From the IMG/VR virus record IMGVR_UViG_2554235419_000004: a stretch of DNA of 32,959 nucleotides; one strand, written 5' to 3'. Made by a program: the position numbers and the translations under genes. The notes under the pieces are model-generated. The model was not told where the DNA came from, did not search any database, and worked only from the letters and a program-made list of their open reading frames with translations. Numbering within the stretch: position 1 is the stretch's first letter; every line of letters begins with the position of its first letter. This document shows positions 8,296 through 32,377 of this stretch, piece after piece. This DNA is from a virus. Taxonomy: Duplodnaviria > Heunggongvirae > Uroviricota > Caudoviricetes.

Positions 8296-8889
8296 CTATT
8301 TGTCCCGGTTGGCTAAGGGATGACACAATTTATTCTTTGTCGCTGATGAGGGAAATTTTTTATAGAGCGTGGACAGACCAATATCAAAAATCAGTGCCAC
8401 GCGTTGACGTGACTCCCCTGCAGCCAGCAAACGCCCGGCCTGCTCCCACTCACTCGCGGTGAGTTTCGGTCGTCTGCCACCAATACGACCTTTGGCTCTG
8501 GCCGCTTCCAGTCCGGCGCGTGTCCGCTCGACAATGAGTTCTCGTTCCATTTCGGCCAGGGCACCCATCACATGAAAGAAAAAACGCCCCATCGGCGTGC
8601 TGGTATCAATAGCATCCGTCAGGCTGCGAAAATTAACGCCGCGTTCGCGCAGCTCCTCAACCAGAATGACCAGATGCCGCATACTACGCCCCAGCCGGTC
8701 CAGCTTCCAGACTACCAGTGTATCCCCCTCCGATAATGTCCTGAGCAGTTTTTTCAGTCCCGGCCTGTCGGACTTCGTGCCGCTGATTTTGTCCTCAAAA
8801 ATCAGCTCACATCCTGCGCACTCCAGCGCGTTACGCTGCAATTCCGTATTCTGGTCATTTGTTGACACGCGTACATAGCCAATAAGCAT
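8296..8889 (-). CDS. Serine-recombinase DNA invertase (Hin/Gin/Pin/Cin family), 197 aa
   Basis: MLIGYVRVSTNDQNTELQRNALECAGCELIFEDKISG...VVWKLDRLGRSMRHL...GRFFFHVMGALAEMERELIVERTRAGL...: catalytic Ser in the VRVSTNDQ motif and a C-terminal HTH. GGGGGA Shine-Dalgarno 5 nt before the ATG at 8889. Confidence 0.9.
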   Translation of the reverse strand: MLIGYVRVSTNDQNTELQRNALECAGCELIFEDKISGTKSDRPGLKKLLRTLSEGDTLVVWKLDRLGRSMRHLVILVEELRERGVNFRSLTDAIDTSTPMGRFFFHVMGALAEMERELIVERTRAGLEAARAKGRIGGRRPKLTASEWEQAGRLLAAGESRQRVALIFDIGLSTLYKKFPSSATKNKLCHPLANRDK

Positions 8890-8944
8890 GAGCATCCCCC
8901 TGAATAAAAACCGGAGATGATGCCAGTTGCCCGTTATCTCTGCA

Positions 8945-8970
8945 TTTTCATAAACGTTGGTTTGGGAGAA
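8945..8970. other. Invertase crossover site, left (hix/gix-like, 26 bp)
   Basis: ttttcataaacgTTggtttgggagaa; its right half is the exact inverse of the left half of the 10784-10809 site; it encodes the conserved ...GLGE junction in frame. Confidence 0.75.
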
Positions 8971-9333
8971 GCGGCAAAACGGGATGTGGGTAACGGGCAA
9001 AACCAAATTCCTGATATGTCAGCGTGGGAGTGTGGGGGAGATACAACGACGGGATGGAGGCGAAGCCCGGATGGTTATATTGAACAATGGGGGCTAACTG
9101 AGGCCACAACAAATGAAGTTTTGATTAATTTTCCTATCCCATTTCCGACAGCCGTCATTTCTATTAATGAACATGACCAGGCTCCTGTGGCAGGGAAAAT
9201 GTCAGTATGGCAATTCTATAAATTGACTAACTCAAATGTCATAGCAGAGAACCTGGGATCTCTTGATAAAGGAAATCCATCCTTCAATGTTCCAACTGTC
9301 GCTGGTTGCCGCTGGTTTGCTACAGGAAGATAA
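8959..9333 (+). CDS. Alternative tail-fibre C-terminal cassette (Sv'-like), promoterless; would be fused to the H constant part only after inversion
   Basis: Open frame through the crossover site encoding ...NVGLGEAAKRD...; no plausible own start; immediately followed by the alternative assembly gene. Confidence 0.65.
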   Translation, partial: GLGEAAKRDVGNGQNQIPDMSAWECGGDTTTGWRRSPDGYIEQWGLTEATTNEVLINFPIPFPTAVISINEHDQAPVAGKMSVWQFYKLTNSNVIAENLGSLDKGNPSFNVPTVAGCRWFATGR

Positions 9334-9334
9334 A

Positions 9335-9775
9335 ATGAGTAAATATCTTTACGATGCAAAAACTAATATGTTTTACCCATTTACTCTGGAAAGTCAGTAT
9401 AAGGAGTCTGGGTTATGGCCTCATAATGGAGTTGAAGTTGATGAGGATATATTTATTAAGTACCTGTCCCCACCTCCTGGGAAGGTGAGAGTTGCGGGTG
9501 ATGATGGCTATCCTGCATGGGATGACGTACCGCCGCTAACTCATGAAGAACAACTGTCAGAAGCGGAACGAAAAAAACAGGCACTCATAAATCGAGTTAA
9601 TGAATATATTAACAGTAAGCAGTGGCTAGGAAAGGCTGCTATTGGTCGTCTGAAAGGTGAGGAACTGGCGCAATATAATTCATGGCTTGATTATCTGGAC
9701 GCACTGGAAATGGTTGATATTTCCAGTGCTCCAGATATTGAATGGCCTACGCCTCCGGCTGTTCAGGCCAGATGA
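9335..9775 (+). CDS. Alternative tail fibre assembly protein (U'-like), 146 aa
   Basis: MSKYLYDAKTNMFYPF...; C-terminus ...SSAPDIEWPTPPA parallels ...TSTAPDIIWPEQPEA of the convergent assembly gene; the 3' ends overlap on opposite strands, as in Mu U/U'. Confidence 0.75.
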   Translation: MSKYLYDAKTNMFYPFTLESQYKESGLWPHNGVEVDEDIFIKYLSPPPGKVRVAGDDGYPAWDDVPPLTHEEQLSEAERKKQALINRVNEYINSKQWLGKAAIGRLKGEELAQYNSWLDYLDALEMVDISSAPDIEWPTPPAVQAR

Positions 9776-10340
9776 TATCCGGCGCGGTGCTGGTATCTGT
9801 TGCCGTCACCGCGTCAATGTAATCCAGCACAGCGTTAAGCCGGGTTGTTTCTGCCTGCGTCAGTTTCCGCCCGGCCTGTAATTTCAGCTGAATCAGACTA
9901 ATGGAAGCCATTGCTGCATCAATCAGTGACTGGCGCTGTGCTTCTGCCGCTTCTACTGCGGCACCGTGTTGTGCCTCAGTATCTGTCACCCATTTCTCAC
10001 CATCCCATTTATCATATGGCGTTAACGGTGAAAGCGTGACATAACCGTTTTTGATGGCACCGATATAATCCACTGTAACAGCTGCGCCATTTTCGATTGA
10101 GTAAACAGTCTCATTGCGATGGTCTTCCTCATGGCTCCATCCCTTACCTGTAAATACTGCCACTCTTCCCGGAATGTTTTCGTCCGGGTCAATACCAGTG
10201 GAACAGGCGGGCATACTTACGCCAGTATTAATATATTCATCAGACCAGCCCGTATATTCAGACGTTACTGCATCATAATAAAAACAACGCATATCACCCG
10301 GCACTGTAGCCAGCCCATTTTCATCAAAAACAGGTTTCAT
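9747..10340 (-). CDS. G: Tail fibre assembly protein (gpG-like, currently in the expressed orientation), 197 aa
   Basis: 197-aa ORF directly downstream of H, start overlapping the H stop; Tfa-like C-terminus. Confidence 0.8.
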   Translation of the reverse strand: MKPVFDENGLATVPGDMRCFYYDAVTSEYTGWSDEYINTGVSMPACSTGIDPDENIPGRVAVFTGKGWSHEEDHRNETVYSIENGAAVTVDYIGAIKNGYVTLSPLTPYDKWDGEKWVTDTEAQHGAAVEAAEAQRQSLIDAAMASISLIQLKLQAGRKLTQAETTRLNAVLDYIDAVTATDTSTAPDIIWPEQPEA

Positions 10341-11623
10341 TATTTAGCCCTCACCAGAAAGTTAAATGCAATATTTCGCGGTCTGACAGCAACAAAATTC
10401 ACACCATCACCCACAGAGTTACTGTTGAAATTAAATCGTGAAAATCCTGGCTGATTTCCGGCGATGCCATCATGAAAGTTAATTGCGTGTCCAGCACCTC
10501 CGCCTATATTCCCGGCAAACTGAGAAAAGTTTGTAGCTTCCTGCCAGCTTAATAATTCGCGACCACCATCTGCACCTCGCCCGTCATCCCAGACACGAAT
10601 GAAATCACCGCGGGCTTCAGGTAATACCAGCGAAGGAAACACTTTCGCCAGCACAGGGTAATCAGAGGCAGAAAATTTCGCCCCGTTAAACTTCAAAAAC
10701 ACCATACTGGACCAGCTGTCGATTACAGTATTTGGCATTGCCGCGGAGGGCCAGAAGAACGGAACGCCAATAGCTGGAGCACCTTCTCCCAAACCAAGGT
10801 ATGCGAGAAGACCAGCCACATCTTTTCCACTCAAATGAGTCAGCGTCTCATCCAGTGGTTGCTTACCTGACAGCGCATTGTTAATGGTGGTGCTGAATTT
10901 CGGGTCATTGTTAATGGCTGCGGCAATTTCTTTCAGTGTATCCAGCGTGGCAGGCGCACCGTTAATCAGAGCGGTAATAGCGGCCTGAACAAACGCAGTA
11001 GTCGCAATCCGCGTGGTGTTATTTCCTGCGGCAGGCGTCGGCGCTTTTGGTTCTCCGGTAAATGTCGGATTATGTTTCTGGGCATACTGGGTATGAGGGT
11101 CCTGTGCGGCAATGTGGTTTCTCATCTGGTCATCCACATACAGCCTTAATTCCAGGACTTCATCATCCACGTATTTACGGGTCGCCAGTACCACCGACGG
11201 GTCGATTTTCAGCGTGATAGCTTCGGTATTCGTGACAACCAGAATCATGCGGATAGTCTGGGTACGACCGCTGCCTTCCTGTAACTGCGGTTTGTACGTT
11301 TCCGGGCAGTTCGCCACCGCAATGAGTACGCCTTCATCATCATAAAGCCCAATCTCACGGATCCAGAATCCGCCCTCGTTCTCAGGGATGATTTGCTCCG
11401 CAATAATCTGGCTCTGGTTGTTCGGGTCAACACTCAGAAGATTCAGCGGTGCAATGCGTTTCTGATTAATCAGTTTTGTCTGTGCCGGGTCTGGTGTCGG
11501 CAAGACACCATTCGCATCACCAACGGCCATTTGCGTCAGATTCAGCTTACTGCCGAGCATCGTCGCGTTAGCCAGCCGTGCTGCGCCCTGATTAGTCAGA
11601 ATGGCGTAGTATTTCACTGTCAT
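10340..11623 (-). CDS. H: Tail fibre protein gpH (constant N-terminal part plus the currently fused variable C-terminal cassette), 427 aa
   Basis: N-terminus MTVKYYAILTNQGAARLANA...MAVGDANGVLPTPDP...GGFWIREIGLYDDEGVLIAVAN resembles P2 gpH / Mu S N-termini as recalled; the crossover site is embedded at residues about 272-281. Confidence 0.85.
   Translation of the reverse strand: MTVKYYAILTNQGAARLANATMLGSKLNLTQMAVGDANGVLPTPDPAQTKLINQKRIAPLNLLSVDPNNQSQIIAEQIIPENEGGFWIREIGLYDDEGVLIAVANCPETYKPQLQEGSGRTQTIRMILVVTNTEAITLKIDPSVVLATRKYVDDEVLELRLYVDDQMRNHIAAQDPHTQYAQKHNPTFTGEPKAPTPAAGNNTTRIATTAFVQAAITALINGAPATLDTLKEIAAAINNDPKFSTTINNALSGKQPLDETLTHLSGKDVAGLLAYLGLGEGAPAIGVPFFWPSAAMPNTVIDSWSSMVFLKFNGAKFSASDYPVLAKVFPSLVLPEARGDFIRVWDDGRGADGGRELLSWQEATNFSQFAGNIGGGAGHAINFHDGIAGNQPGFSRFNFNSNSVGDGVNFVAVRPRNIAFNFLVRAK
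10784..10809. other. Invertase crossover site, right (hix/gix-like, 26 bp), inside tail fibre gene H
   Basis: ttctcccaaaccAAggtatgcgagaa; inverted relative to the 8945-8970 site with a shared 14-bp arm ttctcccaaaccaa; lies at H residues about 272-281 (YLGLGE). Confidence 0.75.
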
Positions 11624-20556: not shown

Positions 20557-22329
20557 ATGACCATCACCACAGACACCACTCTTTTACACGACCCGCGTCG
20601 TCAGGCGGCGCTGCTGTACTGGCAGGGATTTTCCGTGCCGCAGATTGCCGCCATGTTGCAGATGAAACGCCCGACGGTGCAGAGCTGGAAACAGCGCGAC
20701 GGCTGGGACAGCGTTGCCCCCATCAGCCGTGTCGAAATGAGTCTGGAAGCGCGGCTGACCCAGCTCATCATCAAACCGCAGAAAACCGGCGGTGACTTCA
20801 AGGAAATTGACCTGCTCGGACGCCAGATTGAACGACTGGCACGGGTCAACCGTTACAGTCAGACCGGCAACGAGGCAGACCTTAATCCGAACGTCGCTAA
20901 CCGCAACAAAGGCGGGCGTCGCAAACCGAAAAAGAATTTTTTCAGTGACGAGGCCATCGAAAAGCTGGAGCAGATTTTCTTTGAGCAGTCTTTCGAATAT
21001 CAGTTGCACTGGTATCGCGCCGGGCTTGAGCACCGCATCCGCGATATCCTGAAATCCCGCCAGATTGGCGCGACGTTTTATTTTTCCCGCGAGGCGCTGC
21101 TGCGCGCCCTGAAAACCGGTCATAACCAGATTTTTCTGTCGGCCAGTAAAACGCAGGCGTATGTGTTCCGCGAATACATCATCGCCTTTGCCCGGCTGGT
21201 TGACGTTGACCTGACCGGTGACCCAATTGTCCTGGGCAATAACGGCGCAAAACTGATTTTTCTCGGCACCAACTCCAACACCGCGCAGAGCCATAACGGC
21301 GACCTGTACGTCGACGAGATTTTCTGGATCCCGAATTTTCAGGTGCTCCGTAAGGTGGCATCAGGTATGGCCTCACAGAGTCACCTGCGCTCGACCTATT
21401 TCTCCACCCCATCCACGCTGGCGCACGACGCCTACCCGTTCTGGTCCGGTGAACTGTTTAACCGGGGACGCGCCAGCGCCGCCGAACGCGTGGAAATCGA
21501 CGTCAGTCATAACGCCCTTGCCGGAGGTCTTCTCTGTGCGGACGGCCAGTGGCGGCAGATTGTCACCATTGAGGACGCCCTGAAAGGTGGCTGCACTCTG
21601 TTCGACATTGAGCAGCTCAAACGCGAAAACAGCGCCGACGATTTTAAAAACCTGTTCATGTGTGAATTTGTTGACGACAAGGCATCGGTGTTCCCGTTCG
21701 AGGAGCTGCAACGCTGCATGGTCGACACGCTGGAAGAATGGGAAGACTATGCGCCGTTTGCCGCAAATCCGTTCGGCTCACGTCCGGTATGGATTGGTTA
21801 CGACCCGTCACACCGTGGCGACAGCGCCGGATGCGTGGTACTGGCACCGCCGGTGGTGGCCGGTGGCAAATTCAGAATACTTGAGCGTCACCAGTGGAAA
21901 GGCATGGACTTTGCCACCCAGGCGGAATCCATCCGCAAACTCACCGAAAAATACAACGTCGAATACATCGGAATTGATGCCACCGGCCTCGGTGTCGGCG
22001 TGTTCCAGCTCGTGCGCTCGTTCTATCCCGCCGCGCGCGATATCCGCTACACGCCGGAAATGAAAACCGCAATGGTGCTCAAGGCAAAAGACGTTATCCG
22101 CCGTGGCTGTCTGGAATATGACGTCAGCGCCACCGACATCACCAGCTCGTTTATGGCTATCCGCAAGACCATGACCAGCAGCGGACGCAGTGCCACCTAT
22201 GAGGCCAGCCGCAGCGAGGAAGCCAGCCACGCCGACCTCGCCTGGGCGACCATGCACGCCCTGTTAAATGAGCCACTCACCGCCGGTATCAGCACCCCGC
22301 TGACATCCACCATTCTGGAGTTTTACTGA
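20557..22329 (+). CDS. P: Terminase large (ATPase) subunit gpP, 590 aa
   Basis: MTITTDTTLLHDPRRQAALLYWQGFSV...; GAGG Shine-Dalgarno 8 nt upstream; length as P2 gpP; followed by Q with overlapping stop/start. Confidence 0.85.
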   Translation: MTITTDTTLLHDPRRQAALLYWQGFSVPQIAAMLQMKRPTVQSWKQRDGWDSVAPISRVEMSLEARLTQLIIKPQKTGGDFKEIDLLGRQIERLARVNRYSQTGNEADLNPNVANRNKGGRRKPKKNFFSDEAIEKLEQIFFEQSFEYQLHWYRAGLEHRIRDILKSRQIGATFYFSREALLRALKTGHNQIFLSASKTQAYVFREYIIAFARLVDVDLTGDPIVLGNNGAKLIFLGTNSNTAQSHNGDLYVDEIFWIPNFQVLRKVASGMASQSHLRSTYFSTPSTLAHDAYPFWSGELFNRGRASAAERVEIDVSHNALAGGLLCADGQWRQIVTIEDALKGGCTLFDIEQLKRENSADDFKNLFMCEFVDDKASVFPFEELQRCMVDTLEEWEDYAPFAANPFGSRPVWIGYDPSHRGDSAGCVVLAPPVVAGGKFRILERHQWKGMDFATQAESIRKLTEKYNVEYIGIDATGLGVGVFQLVRSFYPAARDIRYTPEMKTAMVLKAKDVIRRGCLEYDVSATDITSSFMAIRKTMTSSGRSATYEASRSEEASHADLAWATMHALLNEPLTAGISTPLTSTILEFY

Positions 22330-23357
22330 TGAGCAAGAAAAAAGGGAAAACACCGCAACCTGCGGCAAAAAAAATGACCGCCAGCGCCCCGAAAATGGAG
22401 GCATTCACCTTTGGTGAGCCGGTGCCGGTACTCGACCGGCGTGACATTCTGGATTACGTCGAGTGCATCAGTAACGGCAGATGGTATGAGCCACCGGTCA
22501 GCTTTACCGGTCTGGCGAAAAGCCTGCGTGCTGCCGTGCATCACAGCTCACCGATTTACGTCAAACGTAATATTCTGGCTTCAACGTTTATCCCGCACCC
22601 GTGGCTTTCCCAGCAGGATTTCAGCCGTTTTGTGCTGGATTTTCTGGTGTTCGGTAATGCGTTTCTGGAAAAGCGTTACAGCACCACCGGTAAGGTTATC
22701 AGGCTGGAAACCTCGCCGGCAAAATATACCCGCCGTGGCGTGGAGGAGGATGTTTACTGGTGGGTGCCGTCCTTCAACGAGCCGACAGCCTTCGCGCCCG
22801 GCTCCGTGTTTCACCTGCTGGAGCCGGATATCAATCAGGAGCTGTACGGCCTGCCGGAATATCTCAGCGCCCTTAACTCTGCCTGGCTGAATGAGTCAGC
22901 CACGCTGTTCCGCCGCAAGTATTACGAAAACGGCGCTCATGCCGGATACATCATGTACGTCACTGATGCCGTGCAGGATCGCAACGATATCGAAATGCTT
23001 CGCGAAAACATGGTCAAGTCGAAAGGCCGCAACAACTTTAAAAACCTGTTTCTCTATGCCCCACAGGGGAAAGCCGACGGCATTAAAATTATCCCCCTCA
23101 GTGAAGTGGCGACGAAGGACGATTTTTTTAATATCAAAAAAGCCAGCGCCGCTGACCTGCTGGACGCGCACCGCATCCCCTTTCAGTTGATGGGCGGCAA
23201 GCCGGAGAACGTCGGGTCACTGGGTGATATTGAGAAAGTGGCAAAGGTCTTTGTCCGCAATGAGCTTATCCCGCTACAGGACAGGATCCGCGAGATAAAC
23301 GGCTGGCTCAGCGCCGAAGTTATTCAATTCAAAAATTACTCTTTAGACGATAATTAA
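22329..23357 (+). CDS. Q: Portal protein gpQ, 342 aa
   Basis: 342-aa ORF downstream of P and translationally coupled to it; synteny with P2 Q. Confidence 0.85.
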   Translation: MSKKKGKTPQPAAKKMTASAPKMEAFTFGEPVPVLDRRDILDYVECISNGRWYEPPVSFTGLAKSLRAAVHHSSPIYVKRNILASTFIPHPWLSQQDFSRFVLDFLVFGNAFLEKRYSTTGKVIRLETSPAKYTRRGVEEDVYWWVPSFNEPTAFAPGSVFHLLEPDINQELYGLPEYLSALNSAWLNESATLFRRKYYENGAHAGYIMYVTDAVQDRNDIEMLRENMVKSKGRNNFKNLFLYAPQGKADGIKIIPLSEVATKDDFFNIKKASAADLLDAHRIPFQLMGGKPENVGSLGDIEKVAKVFVRNELIPLQDRIREINGWLSAEVIQFKNYSLDDN

Positions 23358-23376
23358 CCCAATATTTAGATGATAA

Positions 23377-23424
23377 TTAGCCCTAGCATTTGCCGGGGCT
23401 AATAATTGCAGGATTTTATTTTTT
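23377..23424. terminator. Hairpin plus T-rich tract between convergent Q and the cargo operon (candidate bidirectional terminator)
   Basis: ttagccc...gggctaa inverted repeat (23377-23402) followed by attttatttttt on the plus strand. Confidence 0.35.
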
Positions 23425-23988
23425 CATATTGTATATAAAGTCACAAATATGCGCCAGTGATAATCTGTTATAGTTTTCCAATGTAAACACAGGATAATTA
23501 TAGCAAATTTCAGGAGGAGGCAATTGCGAGCGAACAGTTGTTTTTTTAGCTGATTGCTGCCTCCTCGATAATTTACTTATTACACCAATGTAATCCACTT
23601 TTCTTGACAAATGCCCATGTAAATTCAATACAGAATATAGCCACTTACAAAAATGAATGCCAGTAACTACCTGTTTAGCCGCACCATTTGAGTTATAAGA
23701 TTTGAGATCTATTACGATAAAATAATCTACGTCTTTGTGCGACGTAACAAAAATTCCATCACAAACAGAGCATACTCCTGGTAAAGCAGAAGATTTTAAA
23801 AATTTCCAGACTGGTTTAGAAATACTATTAGAATCTAGCGAAAATCCATAGATACCATTTCCGTTTACCAGTAATTTTTTATTTGTAGCACCTGGGTTCT
23901 CTTCGCATACAACCCAGCATTCCTGCTCTCGCATTAATTGAAATGTAGGATCGATGCAACTTTGTATTACATTGATAATATTACTCAT
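23416..23988 (-). CDS. Unknown 190-aa protein, second gene of the AT-rich cargo operon; candidate effector of a defence system
   Basis: ATG overlaps the stop of the upstream ATPase gene (ATGAGTAA, 8-nt gene overlap); GAGGA Shine-Dalgarno; AT-rich codon usage unlike the phage backbone; no motif I can assign with confidence. Confidence 0.7.
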   Translation of the reverse strand: MSNIINVIQSCIDPTFQLMREQECWVVCEENPGATNKKLLVNGNGIYGFSLDSNSISKPVWKFLKSSALPGVCSVCDGIFVTSHKDVDYFIVIDLKSYNSNGAAKQVVTGIHFCKWLYSVLNLHGHLSRKVDYIGVISKLSRRQQSAKKTTVRSQLPPPEICYNYPVFTLENYNRLSLAHICDFIYNMKK

Positions 23989-25414
23989 CTACATCCTCAC
24001 TATCAGAGGCATTCTCCACCAAGGAGTAATATATTTCATCATTATCGTCATTAATGGCATTAATTACTTCATCAAAAGTTACAGCATTAATCCCTTCATT
24101 TGACTTCTGCATTTCATTGACTGAGCCATTATCAAATAAATACGCAGCGACTAGGTTAGAGTCTAAAATTGAGTCGATGCTAATCCCTTGCTTCTGCATG
24201 ATAGCGTTTCGTTTTTCAATCATATTTTCAGAAACGCCATGCAACATAATCAAGCTATTGATTTCTTTCACAAAATAATCACTGTGAGTACTAACAATAA
24301 CCCGAATACCAGAGTTAACTAGCTTTGCTAAAAATCTTGCAATTACTCGCTGATTTGACGGGTGTAAATTTAACTCGGGTTCGTCAATCATTAAAATATC
24401 ACCAGTTTTTGCTTGGTGCTCTAAATAAAACCACAGGCCAAACAAACTTTTAACAGTGGATGACGATAAATGAAGTTCAATTTTACTTGCAGGTGTCTTA
24501 CCTTTCTTATACGTTGAAAAATAAATCTGCCCTTCAGGATCAACTGAATATTTTCCTGAAATTATTTTTTTTACTTCTTCTGCTAATTTATGAAATTGGC
24601 CATTTTTATTTTTCCTATTAACCTTAATTTCATTAAGCCAGTCTATGTAATTTGCTATAGGAGCAGAATACTTAGACTTCATTACATCCATTAATAGTGA
24701 GTTCAGATCGAACTGTTCTTTTGAGGCGTGGTGCAATAACGCAGTTCTTCTGGAACTTAATTCATTGAAAAAAAGGTGCAAGCCATTTCTTTCTGCGGGA
24801 ATTAAAAATGCTGGGCTTTCATCATACTCTATCTTTAATAACTGACTTAGAGTTAAGTTTATAAACCCATCAATTCTGGGAAAAGCAGAATCTAGCAGCG
24901 TCATTTGTATGATATTGCTATTTTTATCTTTGGATAATAGCATTACTTCTTTTTTGCCGGTTCCTATGACGAGGCTAACATCCAATTTTTTTTCATAAAC
25001 ACTTGATACTAATGATTCTTCATCTATAACCCAGTCAAATGTTGAATTAGAAAAAATTTCCTTATCATTAGTGTTGAATACATCTTTAAGCATTAAAGAT
25101 GAATCTTTATTAAATTCTCTTTTGATTAACGTAAAATTATCTTTTATCCACTCAATTACATCTAATTCAAACTTACCATTTTCACGAAGAGTTTTGGCAA
25201 AATTTGCAACTTGAGGCAATTTTAAAGATGGTGATGGCATATTTAGGAAGCCATATAACCCATACATAACCCATGTTTTACCAGTATTATTTTTTCCGCA
25301 TAAAAGCGTTAAAGGTTTTGCATTAATTTCTCCTGTAGAGATACACCCAATGTTTTTAAATGAAAATCTCCATGATGCTAATTTTTTTACGTTAATTTCA
25401 CTTTGCTTTTTCAT
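23981..25414 (-). CDS. ABC-type / AAA15-AAA21-like ATPase (OLD/SMC-like fold), 477 aa; first gene of the cargo operon
   Basis: Walker A LLCGKNNTGKT (res 38-47); Walker B/D-loop ILMIDEPELNLHP; H-loop VSTHSD; acidic C-terminal tail; AAGGA Shine-Dalgarno; AT-rich. Confidence 0.8.
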   Translation of the reverse strand: MKKQSEINVKKLASWRFSFKNIGCISTGEINAKPLTLLCGKNNTGKTWVMYGLYGFLNMPSPSLKLPQVANFAKTLRENGKFELDVIEWIKDNFTLIKREFNKDSSLMLKDVFNTNDKEIFSNSTFDWVIDEESLVSSVYEKKLDVSLVIGTGKKEVMLLSKDKNSNIIQMTLLDSAFPRIDGFINLTLSQLLKIEYDESPAFLIPAERNGLHLFFNELSSRRTALLHHASKEQFDLNSLLMDVMKSKYSAPIANYIDWLNEIKVNRKNKNGQFHKLAEEVKKIISGKYSVDPEGQIYFSTYKKGKTPASKIELHLSSSTVKSLFGLWFYLEHQAKTGDILMIDEPELNLHPSNQRVIARFLAKLVNSGIRVIVSTHSDYFVKEINSLIMLHGVSENMIEKRNAIMQKQGISIDSILDSNLVAAYLFDNGSVNEMQKSNEGINAVTFDEVINAINDDNDEIYYSLVENASDSEDVDE

Positions 25415-25665
25415 TGAGTTTCCTTAATCAATTACATACGAACTGATCAAACCATTGATCGTGTTGAAAAGTCAATACTATACTAAATAACCACGAAGAA
25501 TAGTGCTTCATTTTCCGTCAGTCCTAATAGGTTAAGATATATGGACTGTTTTCTCAAACTTGTTGCGCTCTGCTGAATCTCTCGTATGTTACTTCAATAT
25601 GATGAACATCCTAACTCTGAAACGGTAAGTCTATCGGTATTACATTTTCACATTGCATGAGCGCG

Positions 25666-25684
25666 GTGCTTTCCCCGCCTCGCC
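25666..25684. other. cos site (19-nt cohesive-end sequence)
   Basis: gtgctttccccgcctcgcc is the reverse complement of GGCGAGGCGGGGAAAGCAC, the P2 cohesive end as I recall it; sits in a GC-rich island inside AT-rich surroundings. Confidence 0.75.
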
Positions 25685-25968
25685 CGCCCGCTTCACGGGG
25701 CGGTTTTAATGCAGTTGCATAGATACTATGGATCCGCACCAGTCCTGACCGCACGCAGCCTGAACGGACATCCCCAGCGCATGCAAAAACATTCACTTGT
25801 TGCATGCATAGCTTTTTAAGTACGCCATACCGCAACTGTACATTTTTAAGCAATTGGCAACTTTAAAAAATTTACATTGCTTTCAAGACCTTATCATCCG
25901 TAGTCTCTGTTTTTTACTTTGAGCTACATCAATAAAATCTCAAACATGTTTAATGCAAAGCCCTTGTT

Positions 25969-26022
25969 ACACAACATAGAATGTATGTCTAGAAACAACG
26001 ACATACTATATGTTGTGTTTTT
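25969..26022 (+). terminator. Long imperfect hairpin plus T-run (candidate intrinsic terminator, attenuator or sRNA 3' end)
   Basis: acacaacatagaatgtatgtc / gacatactatatgttgtgt arms (7 bp + internal loop + 10 bp) followed by TTTTT. Confidence 0.45.
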
Positions 26023-26074
26023 CCGGCTCTCTGTTCGGTGATATGCCAAATCACTTTGCGTTTAAACAGAGCAT

Positions 26075-26089
26075 TATTTCAGGGCAAGA
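26075..26089. repeat. 15-bp direct repeat caagacttcgctcaa, copy 1
   Basis: Exact match to 26349-26363; the two copies flank the small ORF and terminator. Confidence 0.6.
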
Positions 26090-26162
26090 CTTCGCTCAAA
26101 AGTCATTCCACCTAAGAAGCGCATATACCGGTGGAAGTTGCCCTCTACTTACAGGAGGCAAT

Positions 26163-26276
26163 ATGAAGAAATGCTATTACTGCATTCTCGTTCTGGCCCT
26201 CTTTGGCTATCCAAACGGTAGTCCAAGTGGTTTGTCAGTAAACGTCAGTAATATCAATGTCAGCATTATGCTTTAA
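26163..26276 (+). CDS. Small hydrophobic peptide, 37 aa (possible membrane peptide or moron product)
   Basis: AGGAGG Shine-Dalgarno 4 nt before the ATG; MKKCYYCILVLALFGYPNGSPSGLSVNVSNINVSIML; immediately followed by a strong terminator. Confidence 0.4.
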   Translation: MKKCYYCILVLALFGYPNGSPSGLSVNVSNINVSIML

Positions 26277-26285
26277 TATGCTTCA

Positions 26286-26320
26286 AACAAAAAAACCACC
26301 TGCCAGGGTGGTTTTTTTGC
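26286..26320. terminator. Bidirectional Rho-independent terminator (A7-hairpin-T7)
   Basis: aaaaaaaccacctgccagggtggttttttt: GC stem flanked by an A-run and a T-run; can terminate the small-ORF transcript (plus) and the early operon ending with A (minus). Confidence 0.7.
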
Positions 26321-26348
26321 GCCCATCATCAATACGATGAAAGACTGA

Positions 26349-26363
26349 CAAGACTTCGCTCAA
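26349..26363. repeat. 15-bp direct repeat caagacttcgctcaa, copy 2
   Basis: Exact match to 26075-26089. Confidence 0.6.
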
Positions 26364-26578
26364 GACGAATTATGCGTCGACATAAGGTTACCCGCAATGA
26401 TTTTATTAGACTAAATGGATGGCCTTTTATGACCCGGATCAAACGGCTGTCCTTACCGACATGCTAGTCACTCAATAGCATTTAGCCTTCTAATTCAGCA
26501 TGCTATTGACCTTCTGCTGCCCCATAACTGCTCCGCATAAGCCATTCAATGCCATATCAAATCACGTTGTGTTTTTAC

Positions 26579-28897
26579 TCAAATGGGTAACGAGAACCCC
26601 GGCCACTCATCAGCAACCGGATACGTGAATTTTTTCCCGTCATAATTTACGGTCGCGCCACGCGCCAGCGCCTCAAGCTCCCATCGTTGCGGCCTGATAC
26701 CGTTCTGAGCGAGGTCAACGCGGATACGGGTAATTTGCAATCGTTCAGACCTGGTCAGTCTGGCAGATGGTGCAATTTCATGCGGTTTTAACGGGATTCC
26801 GTTTCTTTGCTGACGATTTGGTGTTCTCAGTCCGTGTTTTAATGCGCCCCTGAGCACCATCACGACCTCCGGGTCACTCCATTCGATAACACCGTCATCT
26901 ACCAGATTAAGCACTGCTGCGGCGTGCTCAGAAGGTGTGGGAGCCGGTAACGAAGTATCACCACCGGTGAGCTTTCCACAGTTATTGACAGGACTCCGAG
27001 GCGCGGCGATGCCGCTTTTTAAAGTCAAAGGCTCGACGACCGGAACTTTCGGCACAATGCGCCAGTTCGTCGTTCTGGTGATATGAATATGACGCGCGCC
27101 GAGATGCGGCGCGTAAATGCCGACCACTCTCTCGACCTCTTCCTCGTACTCGTTAACGTCATCCGACGGGCTACGGGCGACCCTGACAGTCTGACAATCG
27201 CGCGGGACATTTGCCCCACCCTGCGCGCTGATATACAACGCAAAATCACCACTGTCTGCGGCGGCGCGTGCAGCCTCGACGCGCTCGTCAAACTCATCAG
27301 CAATGCTGACGCCGCGAGGCAATTTGCGTAGTTCACGGTAAGCCCCCATTGTCGGCAGGCCAACCGTTTTAAATTGCGGGATGCGCCACGTTGACGCCCA
27401 TGCGGTAACAGCCGCTGCAGTGTCTTTCAGCGGCCTGCCGGTGTCGTTATCGAGCTGACCATCCAGTGCATAGCCGTCGATGTTTTTTGAAATGTATTTC
27501 GCGATATATCCCGCAGCACCGCCCCGGTTAAGGTGTTTTGCCTGAAAACGGTTTCGCGCGGCTCCTCTTTCATCGCCATCCTCTTTGAGCGCATAGCGAC
27601 GCATGATTTCGATAATCTGGTTACGCTGGCGTGGATTACAAAAAAGCATCATATGCCAGTGCGGCGTTCCGTCGTGGTGTGGCTCGACGACACGCAAACC
27701 GTAGACCTGTAAATCATTATCCTTGAATGCCGTGCGCATCAGGCTCCAGATACGGCAGAGATAACGCTGCGCATCCTTTGGATTAAATGCCTCATCGTTC
27801 CAGCCGTGATTAAGCTGCACGGTTTTACTTTCGCCTTTTCCTACCTGACGTGTCGGATGATACTTTGACGGCGCGGTCAGCGTGATAAACATCCCCACAT
27901 CACCCTCTGCAGCGGCGTAACGCTCAATACCGGCAATGGTGTTCATCAGCTCCATCCGGCGAATTTCAGGATTAGAAATACTGCCCATCACCTTACTGAT
28001 AAGGTCGATGCGCTCGCCGGTTTCCCTATTTTCAAGGTCACACGATTTAAGAAATTCCAGATTTGCCTGGCGGCGCGCACGCACATCACGAATGGCGTGT
28101 TTACTGGCATAAGGAGAACGGTCTTTATTGACCTCCCCGACAGCTATCAGTAACGCTTCATGCCAGCGCATACGCTGGCCTTTAAGCTGATGAGTCCACC
28201 ACTCATCGTTAAACAGACGGGCAATGGCAGAATATGCCTGCCTCGTGGTCATCTGTCCTTTACGGTATTTTTTCCAGTAAAGCGGGGAAATATTGAAAGC
28301 ACGTGCAGCGCCAGCAACATGACCATACAGATGCGCCTGCGCCTCATCCGTAAACAGCGATTCTTTTTCGCCATGCGCATCCACCCAGGCATCGCAGAGT
28401 TCCTCATACATCATGAAAAGCTGCGATGAGATACGGGCGGCAAACTTTTTCAGCTCCTTGTCATTCATCCCCGGCAGACGCGCATACTGGTCACGCTCTG
28501 CCAGAAACAGCAACGACGCGTCGGTGTTCATTTCATGGCGCTGATTCACACGCTCAATGCGCGGCCATAAACGACGCTGAAAAGTGGATGTGAGGAAATA
28601 AAACCCGTGTACCGGGCTTTTATTGCGCCGGATGTAGTCATAGCGTGAAGTAAACAGCGAGCGCAAAAAGTAAGGCAGGCGGTTAATCGTGGATAAAACA
28701 CCTTGCACCTGACGCATCTCGTCACGTGTAAGGGGTCTTTCGCGCCCGACAGCCTCGCGTGGCGCGTTCCATGCATAAGCACCGGTAAACGCCTTACCGG
28801 TGCCTGCGGCAAATGCTGACGGAGGGACAAAACGCCCGGAGGCTTTAACGGCCATATGAGCCAAAAGCCTCTGAACAACGCTTGCTGAGTTGCTCAA
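26579..28897 (-). CDS. A: Replication initiation protein gpA (rolling-circle nickase), 772 aa
   Basis: 772-aa ORF at the end of the early operon; size and position as P2 gpA (761 aa as recalled). Confidence 0.85.
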   Translation of the reverse strand: MSNSASVVQRLLAHMAVKASGRFVPPSAFAAGTGKAFTGAYAWNAPREAVGRERPLTRDEMRQVQGVLSTINRLPYFLRSLFTSRYDYIRRNKSPVHGFYFLTSTFQRRLWPRIERVNQRHEMNTDASLLFLAERDQYARLPGMNDKELKKFAARISSQLFMMYEELCDAWVDAHGEKESLFTDEAQAHLYGHVAGAARAFNISPLYWKKYRKGQMTTRQAYSAIARLFNDEWWTHQLKGQRMRWHEALLIAVGEVNKDRSPYASKHAIRDVRARRQANLEFLKSCDLENRETGERIDLISKVMGSISNPEIRRMELMNTIAGIERYAAAEGDVGMFITLTAPSKYHPTRQVGKGESKTVQLNHGWNDEAFNPKDAQRYLCRIWSLMRTAFKDNDLQVYGLRVVEPHHDGTPHWHMMLFCNPRQRNQIIEIMRRYALKEDGDERGAARNRFQAKHLNRGGAAGYIAKYISKNIDGYALDGQLDNDTGRPLKDTAAAVTAWASTWRIPQFKTVGLPTMGAYRELRKLPRGVSIADEFDERVEAARAAADSGDFALYISAQGGANVPRDCQTVRVARSPSDDVNEYEEEVERVVGIYAPHLGARHIHITRTTNWRIVPKVPVVEPLTLKSGIAAPRSPVNNCGKLTGGDTSLPAPTPSEHAAAVLNLVDDGVIEWSDPEVVMVLRGALKHGLRTPNRQQRNGIPLKPHEIAPSARLTRSERLQITRIRVDLAQNGIRPQRWELEALARGATVNYDGKKFTYPVADEWPGFSLPI

Positions 28898-31363: not shown

Positions 31364-32377
31364 ATGGCAATCAAAAAACTCGATGATGGTCGATATGAAG
31401 TGGACATCCGCCCTACTGGACGTAACGGAAAACGCATCCGTAGGAAGTTTGATAAGAAAAGCGAAGCTGTCGCTTTCGAAAAATACACGTTGTACAACCA
31501 CCACAATAAAGAATGGCTATCAAAACCAACAGACAAACGACGTCTGTCGGAACTGACACAGATCTGGTGGGATTTAAAGGGTAAACACGAAGAGCATGGG
31601 AAATCTAATCTTGGAAAAATTGAAATCTTCACAAAAATAACGAATGACCCATGCGCATTTCAAATCACGAAATCCCTTATCAGCCAGTACTGCGCCACCC
31701 GAAGAAGTCAGGGTATTAAACCTTCGAGTATCAATCGTGATTTAACATGTATTAGCGGCATGTTTACAGCCCTGATTGAAGCGGAGTTATTCTTTGGTGA
31801 GCACCCTATCAGAGGGACAAAGAGGCTTAAGGAGGAAAAACCAGAAACAGGCTATCTCACACAGGAAGAAATTGCCTTACTGCTTGCAGCACTTGACGGC
31901 GACAATAAAAAGATTGCGATTCTTTGCCTGAGTACAGGAGCACGTTGGGGAGAAGCAGCTCGTTTGAAAGCAGAAAATATCATCCATAACCGCGTCACGT
32001 TTGTTAAAACGAAAACAAACAAACCACGCACCGTCCCGATCTCAGAGGCTGTTGCCAAAATGATCGCGGATAACAAACGAGGTTTTTTATTCCCTGATGC
32101 TGATTACCCTCGCTTCAGACGAACAATGAAAGCAATAAAACCAGATTTGCCAATGGGGCAAGCCACACATGCACTAAGGCACAGCTTTGCCACTCATTTC
32201 ATGATTAATGGAGGAAGTATTATCACGCTACAACGGATACTAGGTCACACGCGGATTGAGCAAACTATGGTTTACGCTCATTTTGCGCCAGAGTACCTTC
32301 AGGACGCCATTTCTCTTAATCCGCTAAGAGGTGGTACTGAGGCCGAGAGTGTCCACACAGTGTCCACAGTAGAGTAA
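31364..32377 (+). CDS. int: Tyrosine integrase, 337 aa
   Basis: C-terminal catalytic residues ...ATHALRHSFATHFM...LGHTRIEQTMVYAHF (R, H-x-x-R, Y); adjacent to attR. Confidence 0.9.
   Translation: MAIKKLDDGRYEVDIRPTGRNGKRIRRKFDKKSEAVAFEKYTLYNHHNKEWLSKPTDKRRLSELTQIWWDLKGKHEEHGKSNLGKIEIFTKITNDPCAFQITKSLISQYCATRRSQGIKPSSINRDLTCISGMFTALIEAELFFGEHPIRGTKRLKEEKPETGYLTQEEIALLLAALDGDNKKIAILCLSTGARWGEAARLKAENIIHNRVTFVKTKTNKPRTVPISEAVAKMIADNKRGFLFPDADYPRFRRTMKAIKPDLPMGQATHALRHSFATHFMINGGSIITLQRILGHTRIEQTMVYAHFAPEYLQDAISLNPLRGGTEAESVHTVSTVE

Follow-up and report, generated by a model that had tools for sequence, protein, structure and literature searches.

An OLD-type ATPase and nuclease operon beside cos of a P2-like prophage, a probable member of the PD-T4-4 defence family

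Introduction

Which function does an AT-rich pair of genes serve that sits between the portal gene Q and the cohesive end of a P2-like prophage, and does it represent a defence system yet to be described? The question arises for a stretch of 32,959 nucleotides (IMG/VR record IMGVR_UViG_2554235419_000004), to which we refer as the window. It contains a nearly complete P2-like prophage that runs from the tail genes through to the integrase. For P2-like phages, the gpA-cos-Q interval has been described as a hotspot of defence systems (PMC9122126; PMC9519451), and an earlier note on this DNA had proposed an uncharacterised, prophage-encoded anti-phage system. The defence part of the proposal gains support by homology, and an OLD-type ABC ATPase with a partner does sit in the known P2 hotspot, while the attribute "uncharacterised" does not hold. 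Instead, the operon, a cos-proximal moron of a P2-like prophage in E. coli W-type strains, very probably belongs to the PD-T4-4 family.

Operon layout and prophage setting

The features relevant for the following are (window coordinates):

23981..25414, minus strand: gene A (PD-T4-4_A), OLD-type ABC ATPase; ORF, 477 aa
23416..23988, minus strand: gene B (PD-T4-4_B), predicted PD-(D/E)xK-type nuclease; ORF, 190 aa
23981..23988, minus strand: A/B overlap of 8 nt, ATGAGTAA, read directly from the sequence
25415-25660: putative 5' untranslated/promoter region of the operon
25666..25684, minus strand: cos, 19-nt P2-type cohesive end GGCGAGGCGGGGAAAGCAC; exact match, 251 nt upstream of gene A
22329..23357, plus strand: portal gene Q; ORF, RefSeq 'phage portal protein'; conserved flank, convergent with gene B
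26579..28897, minus strand: replication gene A (gpA); ORF, RefSeq 'replication endonuclease'; the other hotspot flank
23342..25660: cargo segment (operon plus 5' region), from blastn against Wphi and the drop in GC
31364-32377: integrase, at the window end opposite the host gene

Gene B starts within the last codons of gene A, and this overlap implies translational coupling. A simple promoter scan 5' of gene A gave nothing convincing. The operon is the lowest-GC stretch within the whole window, with a GC content of 0.328 compared to 0.531 for the rest of the window and 0.555 for P and Q. This also holds for third codon positions, i.e., GC3 is 0.28 for both cargo genes but 0.65 for Q and 0.70 for P. 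The earlier note had described two overlapping genes antisense to Q, a composition far from that of the phage backbone and an accessory P2 locus between Q and cos that is known as a defence hotspot; each of these points is borne out by the features above, with the cargo lying between gpA and gpQ and adjoining cos.

The linear Wphi record has the cos 19-mer as its bases 1-19, and 100 shuffles gave no chance match to it. An E. coli variant (L007) has cos at the same relative position, just 5' of the ATPase gene. Within blastn alignments, Wphi 1-24 corresponds to window 25684-25661 and Wphi 210-351 to window 23341-23200, i.e., about 2.3 kb of cargo stand in place of about 185 bp of the Wphi cos-Q spacer. 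In Wphi itself, Q is 188 nt away from cos with nothing between. We thus rejected the reference Wphi as the identity of this prophage at the cos-Q locus, where Wphi lacks the cargo.

The pair has already been catalogued as hotspot cargo. Table S5A of Rousset et al. 2022 lists WP_000744812 and WP_001350078 of E. coli W in the P2-hotspot arrangement (PMC9122126), labelled 'AAA_15/AAA_15/AAA_21 + hypothetical' (NC_017635; PMC9122126). The three additional P2-hotspot systems for which the main text of that study reports defence activity do not include it (PMC9122126), and a search of literature main texts for the two accessions returned nothing beyond this supplement. The same table holds two P2-hotspot entries for NC_017635 (PMC9122126), which implies two P2-like prophages in E. 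coli W. The second entry, 'hypothetical + DinI + hypothetical + DUF262', presumably stands for the true Wphi.

Other parts of the window were also inspected. The window opens in a host gene (1-1362) whose product is a U32-family peptidase (Pfam 5e-89), and the prophage ends just downstream of it. The cos-gpA side, i.e., the classic tin/old side (25685-26578), spans about 0.9 kb of 38-43% GC without a RefSeq gene or PADLOC match; it shows only small mechanical ORFs (e.g., 26010-26276) and a minus-strand hairpin with a T-run behind it (near 26290-26320). The Z/fun hotspot slot (8296-11623) starts with a Hin/Gin-type serine invertase (8296-9006; Resolvase 3e-52 plus HTH_7), and a tail-fibre assembly gene (9263-9775, plus strand) opposes fibre genes (9747-11623, minus strand). 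An inverted repeat of 27 nt with 81% identity (8945-8971 / 10783-10809) encloses about 1.8 kb. The arrangement probably represents a host-range switch by inversion, comparable to Mu G or P1 C.

The ATPase encoded by gene A

All catalytic motifs of an ABC ATPase are intact in gene A: Walker A GKNNTGKT at residues 40-47 (K46), Walker B ILMIDEPE at 340-347 (D344/E345), the D-loop LNLHP at 348-352 and the H-loop STHS at 375-378 (H377). Walker A, Walker B/D-loop and H-loop are found exactly where the earlier note had placed them. Further, we observe an OLD-type PAERN motif at 206-210 (R209) and the signature LSSST at 316-320. Pfam reports only AAA_15 (6e-26) and AAA_21 (8e-17), i.e., no TOPRIM, HNH or other nuclease domain, such that the description as an ATPase without fused nuclease was correct. 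No Pfam domain covers the C-terminal ~90 residues, which close with an acidic tail.

Among 91 PADLOC matches of gene A, the best is the PD-T4-4_A model PDLC04033 (E 2.1e-112, 374.7 bits), which aligns at full length (residues 16-465 on profile 2-458/460). A functional selection against T4 had yielded PD-T4-4 ('ATPase, nuclease') from E. coli ECOR58, and the system was validated (PMC9519451). NCBIfam provides no model above cut-off for either of the two proteins.

Matches to models of other systems raise the question whether the pair is instead a variant of PARIS AriAB, Septu PtuAB, Gabija, AbiL, OLD or the candidate system PDC-M47. Gene A does match PDC-M47A (1.5e-81), AriA (1.8e-29), Old, PtuA and GajA, mostly in the Walker B/H-loop region: the Old and GajA models cover it only at ~334-391 and the PtuA models only at ~335-420. 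Furthermore, 9 of 60 sampled relatives of the partner also match PDC-M47B. The PD-T4-4_A score, however, exceeds that of PDC-M47A by ~100 bits and that of AriA by ~270 bits, no TOPRIM is fused to the ATPase, and the partner itself has no match to the AriB/DUF4435, TOPRIM, HNH/PtuB or PDC-M47B models of PADLOC and Pfam. Given these values, assignment to one of the other systems is highly improbable, and we continue with PD-T4-4.

The partner encoded by gene B

Gene B matches the PD-T4-4_B model PDLC04037 (E 1.2e-15, 56 bits). The match is moderate, i.e., residues 2-155 align to profile positions 3-160/190 and the last 35 residues remain outside. The assignment is shared by the partner's relatives: an exhaustive profile search for the family yielded 133 cluster representatives, nearly all of them full-length proteins of about 175-200 aa, and the PD-T4-4_B model is matched by 58 of the 60 sampled relatives (best E 1.9e-39).

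Conservation was assessed in an alignment of 60 sequences with 20-79% identity to the window protein. Here, D77 and Q106 are invariant, while K96, D52, R143 and K148 are conserved to at least 90%. Position 94 is D or E in the printed alignment rows and in the consensus. Together, the conservation of D77, D/E94, K96 and Q106 gives the classic D...(D/E)xK...Q layout, and we predict D77, D94, K96 and Q106 as the catalytic residues of gene B, plus the conserved D52. The 60-sequence alignment was also used to build an AF2 model (pLDDT 63 for the version from a shallow alignment). Its nearest fold matches are restriction enzymes, McrC and NucS, with Can2 and SLFN11 also among the matches; a Foldseek search against PDB returned nothing significant. 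From motif and modelled fold, the partner is thus a predicted PD-(D/E)xK nuclease. This is in accordance with other papers, whereas a 2026 preprint calls the PD-T4-4 effector an HNH nuclease.

The earlier note had seen no recognisable effector in the 190-aa protein and had taken the system to be novel, a claim it would have withdrawn for matches of both proteins to a characterised system. The first statement is overturned by the PD-T4-4_B match together with the PD-(D/E)xK motif and fold, and the claim of novelty falls with it, since both proteins match the models of the validated PD-T4-4 system (2.1e-112 and 1.2e-15). It is easy to see how a new, undescribed system with the partner as novel effector could be suspected: RefSeq labels the pair 'AAA family ATPase' and 'hypothetical protein', both are of 'unknown function' in PHROGs, Pfam has no match for the partner at E<=1 nor does NCBIfam, and a PDB sequence search with the gene pair is without matches. 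Such a reading is hardly conceivable once the relatives are considered, which match the models of this experimentally validated family as well. Judged by its profile matches, the operon is a divergent P2-borne member of a known family.

Distribution, relatives and selection

E. coli W and its derivatives match the window at 100% identity. We find the full cargo in 19 of 5,426 complete E. coli genomes, while some part of the query is present in 854, mostly the phage flanks. Two records labelled E. coli 'DH5alpha' (NZ_CP026085.1, NZ_CM135829.1) show the W-type cargo at 100% identity. To our knowledge, K-12 derivatives should not carry cargo of an E. coli W-type prophage, so both look like mislabelled W-lineage strains. 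The phage collection contains no isolated phage record with the cargo or a partner homologue. Among plasmids, only distant ATPase relatives are observed, and tblastn finds no homologue of the partner.

At 90% identity, the close relatives of the partner fall into only about 11 clusters, every one from Enterobacterales. The partner, the clade profile and the family profile, used as queries in word-index searches, gave no more than 9-12 clusters, which either belong to this clade or are unnamed. A scan with the clade alignment was positive for 1 of about 185,000 species-representative genomes. Pantoea, Cronobacter and another E. coli lineage show gpA, ATPase and partner convergent with Q, i.e., the same place and orientation as in the window, with partner identities of 54%, 67% and 79%, respectively. 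The order A-then-B is kept in the relatives L003-L007, L009, L010, L011 and L012, and overlapping or abutting A-B junctions recur among them. In three unrelated settings outside phages, a distant homologue of the partner (21-28% identity) follows directly on an AAA_15/AAA_21 ATPase gene. Since distant pairs, chromosomal as well as on a ColE1-type plasmid, keep both ATPase and partner, the two-gene module is a conserved unit.

Some of the relatives deserve individual mention. The E. coli plasmid pSCU-105-5 (L012, 1352-3350), a small non-mobilizable ColE1-type plasmid of 4.8 kb, largely consists of another PD-T4-4 subtype (A: PDLC04032, 410 bits; B: PDLC04035, 147 bits). Klebsiella plasmids of ~4.3 kb that resemble it carry related ATPases. 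In Cronobacter sakazakii (L006, 6570-8008), the ATPase gene is split into ORFs of 143 and 322 aa and gpA is cut to 491 aa while the nuclease gene is intact; this is a decaying prophage whose system is probably inactivated. In L011 (496-3941), the gene immediately downstream of a distant PD-T4-4-like pair encodes 780 aa with domains of the DEAD/ResIII helicase and EcoEI_R_C (type I restriction R subunit) kinds, and such a neighbour points to a defence island. At only 183 aa, the ATPase of that pair may be truncated.

We also compared how fast both genes change. Identities to the window for ATPase/nuclease are 93/79, 81/67, 65/54, 50/28 and 42/23%, i.e., the ATPase value is always the higher one. 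With respect to the L007 allele, dN/dS is 0.059 for A and 0.283 for B, with 0.062 for the neighbouring Q. These ratios indicate that both genes are under purifying selection. Since both also have strong profile matches, they are no chance ORFs. Synonymous divergence from L007 is higher for the cargo (0.38-0.59) than for Q (0.14), a pattern that allele exchange at a hotspot would produce.

Proposed mechanism

For the defence phenotype, complex formation, an abortive outcome and an RNA target, we infer from the literature on related systems. The T4 defence of EcPD-T4-4 was confirmed by Ragucci et al. (10.1101/2025.07.10.664194), who observed a higher-order complex by mass photometry and found that the purified system cleaved 0 of 11 DNA substrates in vitro (10.1101/2025.07.10.664194). 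A second guide is WonAB from the Vibrio cholerae WASA-1 prophage (Adams et al. 2025, PMC12137116). Its defence depends on each of the two genes, on the ATPase motifs and on the lysine of the nuclease; it is abortive without lysis, DNA stays intact and translation stops (PMC12137116). From this combination, Adams et al. propose rRNA or tRNA as the target of WonB (PMC12137116).

By analogy, A and B would be translated together from one operon, with the overlap coupling their synthesis. The ATPase may form a dimer with composite ATP sites that acts as sensor and regulator. In a probable complex as for PD-T4-4 and WonAB, this dimer would hold and control the nuclease. It would sense a cue from the infecting phage, after which ATP binding and hydrolysis could license the nuclease, i.e., the effector whose activity would halt phage production. 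The most likely route would be abortive infection via cleavage of RNA needed for translation, as proposed for WonAB.

An RNA target with abortive outcome is what we favour, if only tentatively, because EcPD-T4-4 cuts no DNA in vitro and WonB stops translation with DNA intact. Within the same PD-T4-4 family, the nuclease could instead provide direct immunity by degrading phage DNA, without abortive RNA cleavage. PD-(D/E)xK enzymes are mostly DNases, the nearest folds of the partner are in line with this, and direct immunity was provided by 7 of 11 nuclease-like systems in Vassallo et al. (PMC9519451). The 11 uncleaved substrates and the intact genomic DNA in the presence of WonB speak against it, as does the presence of Can2 and SLFN11 among the fold matches. 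Both of these act on RNA as well. We regard direct immunity as possible but unlikely and DNA cutting by gene B as less likely than an attack on RNA.

A non-defence role would follow if the pair were a toxin-antitoxin/addiction module, or another moron, that mainly serves prophage maintenance; the nuclease would then be the toxin and the ATPase the antitoxin. In favour of such a role, the nuclease is small and potentially toxic and its gene overlaps the one before it, the Pfam text for AAA_21 reads 'putative AbiEii toxin, type IV TA', and WonB is toxic on overproduction (PMC12137116). This toxicity, however, requires active WonA, which excludes simple sequestration (PMC12137116). Furthermore, PD-T4-4 has a phage-defence phenotype and the pair also occurs in chromosomal non-mobile contexts. 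An addiction function is therefore improbable.

Significance

The results open no new class of immunity, and the scientific gain is small. They provide a name and a predicted nuclease function for two genes that bear only generic labels in RefSeq and PHROGs, in the widely used industrial strain E. coli W and its derivatives KO11FL and LY180. They also show that PD-T4-4, whose first known carrier was an ICE-like element, can occupy the Q side of cos in the P2 hotspot. Mildly interesting are the fixed position and the fast-evolving nuclease: in four enterobacterial genera the P2-borne module keeps to the cos-Q slot, and identities range from 93 to 42% for the ATPase versus 79 to 23% for the nuclease. 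The natural allelic series in one slot (partner identities of 79%, 67% and 54%) is usable for specificity studies.

Whether the P2-borne clade is a functionally distinct PD-T4-4 subtype is rather doubtful. If so, the effector and not the sensor could be the part involved in an arms race (e.g., against phage-encoded nuclease inhibitors), and target or trigger could differ from the ECOR58 system, perhaps tuned to competitors of P2-like phages.

Comparison with known systems

The closest system is PD-T4-4 of ECOR58 (RCO57999.1 and RCO57988.1; Vassallo et al. 2022, PMC9519451). Both operons encode the ATPase first and a ~190-aa nuclease second, within 1973 bp (ECOR58) versus 1999 bp (window). The ATPase is of the OLD-type ABC class with AAA_15/AAA_21, and both window proteins match the family profiles. 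For the validated PD-T4-4B, weak REase HHpred matches span residues 77-106/119 (Vassallo supplement, PMC9519451), i.e., the PD-(D/E)xK core is found at residues ~77-106 in ECOR58 as well as in the window. The carriers differ: ECOR58 PD-T4-4 sits in an ICE-like element (PMC9519451), the window operon in the cos-Q slot of a P2-like prophage. Moreover, the partner of the window clade is divergent, with 23-28% identity to the out-of-clade members compared and a profile match of 56 bits for the window protein.

PARIS, P2 Old, Gabija GajA and Septu PtuAB share an OLD-type ABC ATPase as sensor or regulator. P2 Old occupies the gpA-Q hotspot as does the window cargo, while PARIS is found in the P4 satellite hotspot. 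The difference is in the effectors, i.e., TOPRIM in AriB, Old and GajA and HNH in PtuB versus a separate PD-(D/E)xK protein in the window. PARIS was rejected since the partner has no AriB (PADLOC) or Pfam match and AriA is only a secondary match of the ATPase, Septu since the partner matches neither PtuB nor HNH, OLD and Gabija since Pfam gives AAA_15/AAA_21 only and no fused TOPRIM, and AbiL on the identity of the partner.

The computational class 'OLD-ABC ATPase + novel REase' of Krishnan et al. 2020, as cited in PMC12137116, resembles the window pair in its conceptual architecture, compared here by that description. It is probably a superfamily that covers both WonAB and PD-T4-4.

WonAB differs from the window pair in phage family and host as well as in the size of the nuclease (WonB 16 kDa versus about 22 kDa for gene B), and its authors report differing ATPase insert regions and C-terminal extensions (PMC12137116). 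Still, both are prophage-borne and combine an OLD-type ABC ATPase with a small PD-(D/E)xK nuclease in one operon. An arginine-containing motif replaces the Q-loop in both (WonA R182; R209 within PAERN in the window), as compared by motif and not by alignment, and the essential K71 of WonB has its equivalent in K96. Likened by architecture and motifs, WonAB is the best mechanistic model for the operon, i.e., for a defence that would be abortive, independent of lysis and based on translation arrest.
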